From an uncultured Gemmatimonadales bacterium (lineage in GTDB: Bacteria > Gemmatimonadota > Gemmatimonadetes > Gemmatimonadales > GWC2-71-9): a stretch of 64,000 nt of DNA. The stretch lies in assembly GCA_965652025.1 (NCBI GenBank), contig CBFGTM010000011.1, forward strand, positions 11,171 to 75,170, given 5' to 3'. This document shows, piece after piece, positions 42,954 to 43,461 of the stretch. The position numbers and the translations under genes are program-made. A model generated the notes under the pieces. That model ran no database searches, was not told the DNA's origin, and worked only from the letters and a program-made list of their open reading frames with translations. The stretch's first letter is position 1; every line of letters begins with the position of its first letter.

Positions 42954-43461
42954 GTCGGTGCGGGGGAATCTTCGGGCCGAACGGCTGCACGGGGTCGCCG
43001 GCGGCTTGCACCCGAACGTTGGCGACTTGCACGCGAACGTCGGCGGCCTGCATGGGGTCGCTGCCAGGAAAATGGGAACGCTGCTCGTCGGCACGGGGCC
43101 GCTGGCGGTCGCGATGGTGTCGCTGACGATCCACATGCAGACGCTGACAATCCACATGGAGACGCTGTCAGTCGGCACGGAAACCCTGGCGGTCTGGATG
43201 CGAACCCTGCCGGGAAAATTGAATCGCTGCTCGGCTGCACGGGGTCGCCGGCGATCCGCAGGGAGACGCTGCCGGAAAAATGCCGTCCCGGTCAGCCGGC
43301 ACGGAACCGCTGACGGGCTGCACGAGAACCCCGGCGGACGAAATGGGGACGCTGCCGGGAAAATCCCAACGCCGGCAGGTTGCACGGAGACGCTGACGAT
43401 CCACATGGGGTCGCTGACCGTCCACATGCGAACGCTGTCGGCCGCGATGGAAGCGCTGCCG
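42954..43461. repeat. Array of about 24 degenerate 20/21-bp direct repeats (core CCACATG-N5-CGCTG)
   Basis: Contiguous units with no spacers, e.g. ATCCACATGCAGACGCTGACA (43129), ATCCACATGGAGACGCTGTCA (43150), ATCCACATGGGGTCGCTGACC (43399), GTCCACATGCGAACGCTGTCG (43420). A 22-mer CGGCTGCACGGGGTCGCCGGCG is identical at 42982 and 43232. At least six units are 20 nt rather than 21. Confidence 0.8.

Follow-up and report, generated by a model that had tools for sequence, protein, structure and literature searches.

A phased array of degenerate 20/21-nt direct units downstream of rpsD in uncultured Gemmatimonadales, conserved at a short motif that a protein may read

Long degenerate arrays that keep a short box are well known on plasmids, as iterons and partition centromeres, and also as sponge RNAs; to our knowledge, no partner-less array of this kind is known on a bacterial chromosome. 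Here, we describe an array of 23 contiguous direct units of 20 or 21 nt that lies between rpsD and a convergent gene in a 64,000-nt stretch of DNA (hereafter the window; contig CBFGTM010000011.1) from an uncultured member of the Gemmatimonadales. The source is assigned to this order by its S4 protein, which is 97% identical to that of a Gemmatimonadales metagenome-assembled genome (MAG) and whose best ~40 matches all belong to the order. We have compared the window array with its orthologue in a sister species (locus L009), with a paralogous array at a second locus (L235), and with arrays of the same build in three other genera of the order (L011, L013, and L041). From these comparisons, the array appears best filed as a tandem protein-recognition-unit array of a general known kind, more structured than it seemed in the preliminary description, which had been made from the letters of the window. 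What is new with respect to that description is the constraint on the motif, the colinear paralogue, the whole-unit differences among relatives, the sister arrays, and the existence of array-less relatives.

Plasmid iterons, such as those of the R6K gamma origin, P1 incA, and F incC, are, like the units studied here, asymmetric and contiguous direct repeats of ~19-22 bp with a phasing of about two helical turns. They are likewise conserved only at their recognition positions, and their arrays can be titration sinks. Iteron sets comprise 3-9 repeats, are carried by a plasmid or a secondary replicon, and adjoin a rep gene, DnaA boxes, and an AT-rich unwinding element. In contrast, the array has 23 units and a G+C content of 67%, is found on a chromosomal contig and at no fewer than two loci in the lineage (at least the window and L235 types), and has no rep gene. 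Partition centromeres (F sopC, 12 x 43 bp; pSK41 parC, 20-bp repeats; R1 parC) are similar in consisting of ~0.5 kb of head-to-tail units, and the 43-bp units of sopC recall the 43-nt higher-order period of the L041 array. These centromeres load many copies of one DNA-binding protein and evolve fast and in a lineage-specific manner. They adjoin the genes for ParA or ParM and for a centromere-binding protein, and the sopC units contain an inverted repeat, whereas there are no partition genes near the window or the L235 arrays and the units lack an inverted repeat. The iteron or centromere function suggested in the preliminary description is not borne out, since initiator and partition genes, an AT-rich unwinding element, and a plasmid replicon are all absent.

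Among RNAs, the sponges CsrB/CsrC, RsmX/Y/Z, and CrcZ resemble the array in their length of a few hundred nucleotides, in their ~20 degenerate short motifs, in having paralogous copies, and in a fast sequence turnover that conserves only the motif. Sponge RNAs have their own promoter and intrinsic terminator and present their motifs in hairpin loops at an irregular spacing, whereas the array shows no promoter, terminator, or structure signal, keeps a strict 20/21-nt spacing, and contains ANGGA in 6/23 window units. The ToxI repeats of type III toxin-antitoxin systems are also a non-coding tandem array of direct repeats, which comprises 2-5.5 units of about 34-45 nt, each binding one protein, followed by a terminator and the toxin gene. 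The array differs from them in having 23 units of 20/21 nt and no downstream toxin gene, the next gene in the window being convergent.

Minisatellites or variable-number tandem repeats (VNTRs), such as the mycobacterial interspersed repetitive units (MIRUs), are likewise intergenic and head-to-tail, with gains and losses of whole units between relatives. VNTR units are usually near-identical and variable between strains, whereas the array units are 59% alike in register, the array has the same length in eight population contigs, and its conservation is confined to the motif. Repetitive extragenic palindromes (REPs) and bacterial interspersed mosaic elements (BIMEs) are short repeats that also follow gene ends, especially between converging genes, but REPs are imperfect palindromes in alternating orientation, whereas the array units are all direct and non-palindromic. 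Unlike a CRISPR, the array has degenerate units, no spacers, and no cas gene among its neighbours. By analogy, it would work most like an iteron or centromere array or a sponge RNA, and it fails the defining tests of each family. The earlier statement that no element of this form is described still holds: searches of Rfam, Pfam, and the plasmid and phage records gave no similar sequence, and a literature search gave no described element matching the array.

The window array and the repeats within it are the following:

42988..43466, plus strand (the strand of the motif as written): array of 23 contiguous direct units, consensus CAYGGRRWCGCTGNCGGNCNG, defined by the matrix-guided parse and per-position conservation.
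42982..43003, plus strand: exact 22-mer CGGCTGCACGGGGTCGCCGGCG, copy 1 (repeat family D3).
43051..43070, plus strand: 20-nt unit with terminal A-run (CATGGGGTCGCTGCCAGGAA), its position kept in L009 and in the paralogue L235.
43113..43175, plus strand: three units, two of them ending in TCCA before CATG, run 1, which contains the first near-identical pair of the preliminary description (repeat family D1).
43197..43216, plus strand: 20-nt unit with terminal A-run (GATGCGAACCCTGCCGGGAA), from the parse.
43232..43253, plus strand: exact 22-mer CGGCTGCACGGGGTCGCCGGCG, copy 2, 250 bp from copy 1 (repeat family D3).
43259..43278, plus strand: 20-nt unit with terminal A-run (CAGGGAGACGCTGCCGGAAA), from the parse.
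43342..43361, plus strand: 20-nt unit with terminal A-run (AATGGGGACGCTGCCGGGAA), the point at which L009 has an insertion of two extra units (41 nt).
43383..43445, plus strand: TCCA/CATG units, run 2, 270 bp from run 1 (repeat family D1).

The unit boundaries were set by a dynamic-programming parse with a unit matrix, in which spacings are 20 or 21 nt only. The array is composed of 19 units of 21 nt and four units of 20 nt, with a mean spacing of 20.8 nt and a length of 479 bp. The units are contiguous and degenerate, without spacers between them, and their mean identity in the in-register comparison is 0.59. All four 20-nt units terminate in a GGAAA A-run (43051, 43197, 43259, and 43342). 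Identity at lag 21 is 0.52 within the array vs 0.20-0.33 at unrelated lags, with echoes of the periodicity at lags 42 and 62/63, and in a scan of the full 64 kb the array was the sole region with a best period of 21 at an identity >=0.5. Because the units are degenerate, Tandem Repeats Finder, which had been proposed for fixing the boundaries, detected only three short pieces of the array. The repeats are direct only, apart from one 12-nt inverted pair whose members are 242 nt apart, and the repeat search detected no hairpin-type repeats in the array. The head-to-tail 20/21-nt array of the preliminary description is thus real according to the lag-21 identity and the 23-unit parse, as are its exact 22-mer at 42982 and 43232 and its two runs of TCCACATG units 270 bp apart, but its counts were too high: ~24 units had been claimed where the parse gives 23, and six or more 20-nt units where it gives four.

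An assembly artefact, which the preliminary description had considered, is ruled out by eight independent contigs and by an orthologue from another assembler. The contigs come from different samples and assemblers (ENA, Logan) and carry the same array without any change of length, at 99.5-99.8% identity, with six single-nucleotide polymorphism sites within the array separating them from the window. The orthologous array is present in a MEGAHIT MAG of the sister species (L009).

The motif statistics were obtained from 70 units of three arrays (window, L009, and L235). Columns A2 and G13 are invariant (70/70 each), and C9 (67/70), C15 (64/70), and G10 and C11 (63/70) are nearly so; at positions 14, 18, and 20 the commonest base is found in only 22-26/70 units, which is near random. 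Homogeneity among positions was rejected in each array, with p about 1e-11 to 1e-16. The window and L009 arrays diverge by 11.8%, compared with 10.5-17% at the third codon positions of the flanking genes, and the segment running from the rpsD stop codon to the array, including the terminator, diverges faster than the array (27% plus gaps). The more informative a position, the lower its substitution rate, both in the orthologue (Spearman -0.51, p=0.019) and in the paralogue (Spearman -0.63, p=0.002), and positions 2, 9, 11, 13, 15, and 17, a set chosen post hoc, changed in 4/138 cells vs 55/341 elsewhere. Most of the orthologue differences (56/59) use a base that is found at the same position in another unit. 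With respect to spacing, the three arrays use steps of 20 or 21 nt only (means 20.7-20.8), and the window and L009 arrays differ by no small indels, only by one 41-nt (two-unit) indel. According to these sequence comparisons, constraint acts on the motif positions and on the spacing, whereas the rest of the unit drifts, and we conclude that something would read the motif CAYG-N4-CGCTG-N-C at a fixed step.

The L009 array, from the species with an S4 protein 97% identical, is 88% identical to the window array, and a third orthologue of the rpsD locus (P0002) was matched in protein space. The second locus, represented by L235 and L236, is distant from any rpsD and has an array of 22 units flanked by two genes of the minus strand. 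L235 comes from the same sample series, with a coverage of 5.9x vs 6.1x for the window-type contig of the same sample, and further orthologues of this locus are P0001 and P0005. The L235 and window arrays are colinear: their A-run units follow each other in the same order, and the last four units match closely. Identity between both arrays is 66%, vs 59% among the window units in register, and it is 88% over the 77 nt of L235 6116-6192 and window 43121-43197. Copy number among the relatives changes by whole units only: L009 has two more and P0002 two fewer than the window, and P0001 has one more than L235. With orthologues, a paralogue, and sister arrays, the array is not unique and absent from close relatives, as the preliminary description had thought it might be. 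An exhaustive search of 1.84 billion representative proteins, with the translation of the open reading frame (ORF) of the array as query, gave only three other array ORFs, and thus the window-type array appears to be rare and confined to a narrow clade. Scans of metagenomes and viral sequences for three phased units yielded for the most part perfect 21-nt tandem repeats of no relation to the array, among them many coding heptads; L194 looked similar, but its resemblance is largely forced by the search pattern.

Three further genera of the Gemmatimonadales have arrays of the same build with a different consensus in the 2.5 kb that follow rpsD, with 17-24 units of 20-22 nt:

L011: array of 24 units, AATATTGTTCCCGTCAG-type, with a 62-nt higher-order period.
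L013: array of ~19 units, CACGANTGTTTCGCC-type.
L041: array of ~17 units, AAATGGGGAAGCCGCCGG-type, with a 43-nt higher-order period.

Aligned on the invariant A, the arrays of all genera have in common the skeleton A2, Y3, Y11, Y12, G13, and C15. Converging genes flank five of the six array loci, and L235 lies between two same-strand genes. All five rpsD-linked arrays (window, L009, L011, L013, and L041) have the same orientation relative to the flanking genes.

Our tentative proposal is that the array constitutes a series of phased sites for a putative sequence-specific DNA-binding protein, with duplex DNA as the most likely substrate. Its ~23 asymmetric putative recognition sites (CAYG-N4-CGCTG-N-C) would be read by this candidate protein. 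The steps of 20-21 bp (mean 20.8) amount to about two turns of B-DNA, so every site would face the same side of the helix; the phased direct repeats at about two helical turns of the preliminary description are supported by the 20/21-nt spacing. The protein could coat this face cooperatively, as Rep does on iterons or ParR and SopB on plasmid centromeres, and possible outcomes would be titration of that protein or a protein-bound block that separates rpsD from the convergent lipoprotein gene. The binding of a protein, DNA rather than RNA as its substrate, and the effect of the binding are all three what we infer. Duplex DNA is favoured by the fixed step, the asymmetric footprint of 15-17 bp, and the lack of any RNA signal, promoter, or terminator, and the reading by a protein is favoured by the colinear paralogue, which keeps the order of the A-runs, and by the same-build arrays of three other genera.

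It is possible, and we advance it with the same reserve, that these arrays represent a previously undescribed class of chromosomal elements in the Gemmatimonadales, with a box (A2...C9.C11.G13.C15) read by a dedicated co-evolving protein. Such elements, of ~0.5 kb each, would be placed at two or more loci in the lineage, possibly in one genome. They could titrate that protein, form a barrier where genes converge, or serve as a chromosome-organising or centromere-like site; if transcribed, they could be a new kind of unstructured protein sponge. The genus-specific consensus would reflect the co-evolution of the box with its reader, like a satellite repeat with a conserved protein-binding box.

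Several observations count against the reading of the array as sites for a DNA-binding protein. No rep, par, or other partner gene was found among the called genes around the window array, the neighbours of the L235 array likewise include neither an initiator nor a partition gene, and the two array loci have no protein in common. The array contains no 10-11-bp sub-periodicity, and the phasing of A/T dinucleotides at ~10.4 bp is not significant in window-type arrays, so intrinsic curvature from phased A/T was also rejected. The distribution is sporadic, with no array at ~35 other related rpsD loci; in L012, whose flanks are 86-90% identical to those of L011, the ~1 kb of L011 that contains the array is missing and only the terminator is common to both. 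Consensus sequences vary from genus to genus, as they do in concertedly evolving satellites, and 5/6 loci are in gaps between converging genes, where inert DNA is tolerated. The strict spacing could be mere inheritance from tandem duplication. Gene conversion between units could inflate the excess of orthologue changes at variable positions, although it cannot be a source of invariant columns beside saturated ones. In addition, the present results, being those of sequence analysis, make no direct distinction between action as DNA and action as RNA.

Some of these observations would agree with a selfish or decaying minisatellite, i.e., an array that tandem duplication created where converging genes leave a rearrangement-prone gap and that recombination has kept or spread without any role in the cell, an explanation that we consider rather doubtful. 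Its overall divergence is close to the synonymous rate, most relatives lack the array, including near relatives of the carriers, and the region downstream of rpsD is a break-point of synteny. Concertedly evolving repeats typically have a genus-specific consensus and higher-order periods (here 41-43 and 62 nt), and the family is very rare, given the three other array ORFs among 1.84 billion representative proteins. Moreover, the paralogue stands beside a gene remnant, and at both loci a short dispersed repeat is found <1 kb from the array. However, neutral decay cannot keep A2 and G13 in 70/70 units with randomised neighbours, there are no indels that break the spacing, and paralogues with a divergence of 34% still agree in the number of units (22-25) and in the order of their subtypes. 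Even a selfish element would depend on some factor able to read the motif.

The genes and signals that flank the window array, on which the possibility of an RNA depends, are the following:

42261..42860, plus strand: rpsD (ribosomal protein S4, 199 aa), from its ORF and the Pfam families Ribosomal_S4 and S4.
42916..42952, plus strand: intrinsic terminator of rpsD, a 10-bp stem and then TCTTTTTTGT, from the terminator scan (42916-42942 before the T-tract).
42953..42987, unstranded: terminator-array junction (35 nt) without any unit, conserved with L009.
43464..43913, minus strand: convergent 149-aa gene with the N-terminal sequence MCRCWLALTLAAVAAC, a lipoprotein-like signal; from its ORF, the stop codon overlapping the last unit.

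The preliminary description had recognised rpsD, its terminator, and the convergent lipoprotein-type gene, and all of them have been confirmed (Pfam S4, terminator scan, and ORF list), but both limits of the array had to be moved. Positions 42954-42987, which had been placed within the array, do not score as a unit and form the junction; the equivalent stretch of L009 scores -13 against the unit matrix, and L011 has TTCGGGGCC at the same place in common with the window junction. At the other end, the last unit overlaps the stop codon by 3 nt instead of ending 2 nt before it. Hairpins equivalent to the rpsD terminator precede the arrays of L009, L011, and L041. The 149-aa protein has no Pfam family, and its orthologue, 87% identical, adjoins the L009 array. 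The genes called from ~5.7 kb upstream to 4.4 kb downstream encode an SDF transporter, a peptidase M61, an FRG protein, S4, an outer membrane protein (OMP) beta-barrel, a cytochrome c, an ArsR-like regulator, and a response regulator; in agreement with the preliminary description, there is no rep, par, or cas gene among them.

In each of the six loci, a minus-strand gene has its end 0-300 nt away from the array, on its upstream side in the minus sense, and no terminator was found between this gene and the array in the two loci scanned (window and L235), which for the window had already been noticed; thus, the array is probably transcribed as the 3' untranslated region (3'-UTR) of the minus-strand gene. 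In the window, L009, L011, and L041, the array fills the gap between the stop codon of that gene and the facing terminator hairpin. This arrangement would suit an array that acts as RNA, presenting many single-stranded copies of the motif that bind a protein or modulate an mRNA, a view for which we see some room but not much. On the minus strand, the RNA would possibly be a long 3'-UTR of the convergent gene, and on the plus strand it would be sponge-like, with segment 1-8 (CAYGGRRW) exposed. In fact, on the plus strand of all three arrays, positions 1-8 are predicted to be more often unpaired (0.28-0.78) than positions 9-17 (0.06-0.35), but positions 5-8 are among the least conserved. ANGGA is present in 18/22 L235 units, where GGA is found 28 times vs 14.6 expected, and the common orientation of the five rpsD-linked arrays to the flanking genes is also in favour of an RNA. 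In the window, however, only 6/23 units contain ANGGA and GGA is not enriched (15 vs 11.6 expected), so that a CsrA sponge fits the paralogue L235 alone and was rejected, and no CsrA gene was found in the window or the compared loci, which are a small part of any genome.

Other tests for an RNA were negative. No Rfam family reached the threshold in the window, and at E<=10 the array region gave chance-level matches only (E=2.2-9.9, far below the gathering scores). Neither the window array nor the paralogue shows an excess of folding stability, with z values against shuffles of -1.4 and -0.4 (window array) and of +0.4 and -0.3 (paralogue), and the covariation term of the alignment fold is unfavourable. 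A known or structured RNA appears unlikely on these grounds. Scans limited to the sigma-70 consensus detected no sigma-70-like promoter beside either array (window or L235), the terminator scans detected no terminator 3' of either of them, and strong terminators precede the array in the plus-strand direction. The irregular spacing and hairpins of the known sponge RNAs also separate them from the array. Two further candidates were discarded: sigma-54 promoters, since the GG...GC spacing, judged by eye, is one base short, and a Rho-loading site on the minus strand, since the C/G bias amounts to no more than 1.18 and L013 has the opposite bias.

That the array is a present or recent gene for a heptad-repeat protein, with units reading M/T-E/G-T/S-L-x-x-x, is very unlikely. 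A period of 21 nt equals seven codons, one frame has G or C at most third positions, and a 212-aa ORF that spans the window array is annotated by gene callers. Nevertheless, the stop-poor units leave ORFs open over the array in all six frames, in line with the long ORFs in at least five frames on both strands that had been reported, and the four 20-nt units shift the heptad through all three frames, with the same shifts in L009 and L235. The 212-aa ORF is broken in L009 because the 41-nt indel splits the spanning ORF into 118, 107, and 252 aa. The differences by codon position, 13, 22, and 23 of 58 in the best frame between the window and L009 and 58, 49, and 49 between the window and the paralogue, show no third-position excess, either for the orthologue or for the paralogue; moreover, the invariant G13 would fall on a third codon position, and position 14, the site that varies most, on a first one. 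Neither array translation matches a Pfam family. These data rule out a coding repeat on the plus strand and agree with the preliminary description that the array is non-coding, as judged from the broken ORF, the frame-shifting 20-nt units, and the lack of codon periodicity. On the minus strand, a read-through extension of the lipoprotein was also rejected, the frame being open in the window and closed in L009, and the translations of the minus-strand ORFs gave no match as protein queries.

In favour of a coding array, a real KETLAVG heptad protein scores E=4e-7 against the 212-aa translation. This protein (P0003, from the representative library) has 383 aa with ~25 KETLAVG/KETLAVS heptads, and its repeat is nearly identical to what the array units would encode in one of their frames (TETLAVS, METLSVG). 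The likeness may be either chance or a hint that the unit descends from a coding heptad repeat.

Finally, a true replicon element, be it plasmid-type iterons, an origin, or a DnaA-box cluster, is highly improbable in spite of the direct repeats at an iteron-like period and the four units with ATCCACA or GTCCACA, which are DnaA-box-like, because the contig carries rpsD and is chromosomal, no rep or dnaA gene is found in the neighbourhood, the array has 67% G+C and no AT-rich stretch, the cumulative GC skew does not turn at 43 kb, the box is present in only 4/23 units, and there is no similarity to plasmid or phage records.

Other features of these loci have been observed. Upstream of rpsD, synteny is kept in ~30 genomes (loci L009-L057), with an FRG-domain gene, a gene for a 130-aa secreted-looking protein, and rpsD itself. 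The genes downstream vary almost every time (a response regulator, tRNA-Cys, an M28 peptidase, a DUF6982 gene, or a lipoprotein gene), and thus, as far as gene order indicates, the 3' side of rpsD appears to be a synteny break-point and rearrangement hot-spot. The response regulators found near several arrays follow the synteny of rpsD and are also present in array-less relatives. The 77 nt that precede the rpsD start (42184-42260) are 98.7% identical to L009, with one change, where synonymous sites diverge by 10-17%. By analogy, this conservation would fit an autoregulatory S4 leader, such as the one known for the monocistronic rpsD of Bacillus.

A 48-nt tandem duplicate (98% identical, core GCTTCGGTCGCTTCGCTCCCTCGCAGTGAC) is located at window 42046-42143, ~120-200 nt upstream of rpsD, without further copies in the 64-kb window. 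The same element is found directly 3' of the L235 array (6197-6226) and upstream of rpsD in another genus (L030, 3421-3450). From its sequence, it looks like a small dispersed repeat of the REP type or of the type of miniature inverted-repeat transposable elements (MITEs), and its closeness to both arrays may or may not be due to chance. Also in L235, positions 6780-7015 beside the array encode the last ~70 codons of an amidohydrolase (Pfam positions 287-342 of 345), and this remnant abuts a minus-strand ORF (6350-6762) that by eye encodes a zinc-ribbon/membrane protein, which suggests that the L235 locus may have been built by insertion or rearrangement.

Short, genus-specific microsatellites are present between the rpsD stop codon and the terminator, i.e., (GGGTAAGT)3 at window 42883-42908, a GGTAAGC-type at L011 4601-4630, and a GGCTATG-type at L041 4600-4640 and 4680-4710 and at L017 4600-4660; L041 has in addition a complementary repeat 3' of the terminator that would lengthen its stem. 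The contig end of L009 contains a (CACCAGT)n microsatellite with a complement-like (GGCGACT)n nearby (together at 45-115 and 172-205), and L018 contains similar 7-mer repeats (3199-3303); the repeats of neither locus are related to the 21-nt array. In L011, a 60-aa helical ORF (5392-5574; VNTHDGQEIAQRLAQLLRQREVLKEQ...) with a Shine-Dalgarno (SD)-like GGGGAGG lies in the space that separates the array from the following gene; this ORF has no Pfam match and is missing from L012 along with the array.

If no protein reads the box, the array would be an unusual satellite-like DNA that persists in a compact bacterial genome, and its motif-limited conservation would need another explanation. If a protein does read it, the array would point to a previously unseen regulator or organiser in the Gemmatimonadales, which belong to a widespread and almost uncultured soil phylum, and it would offer a natural case of ~50 clustered sites per genome acting as a sink or a barrier.

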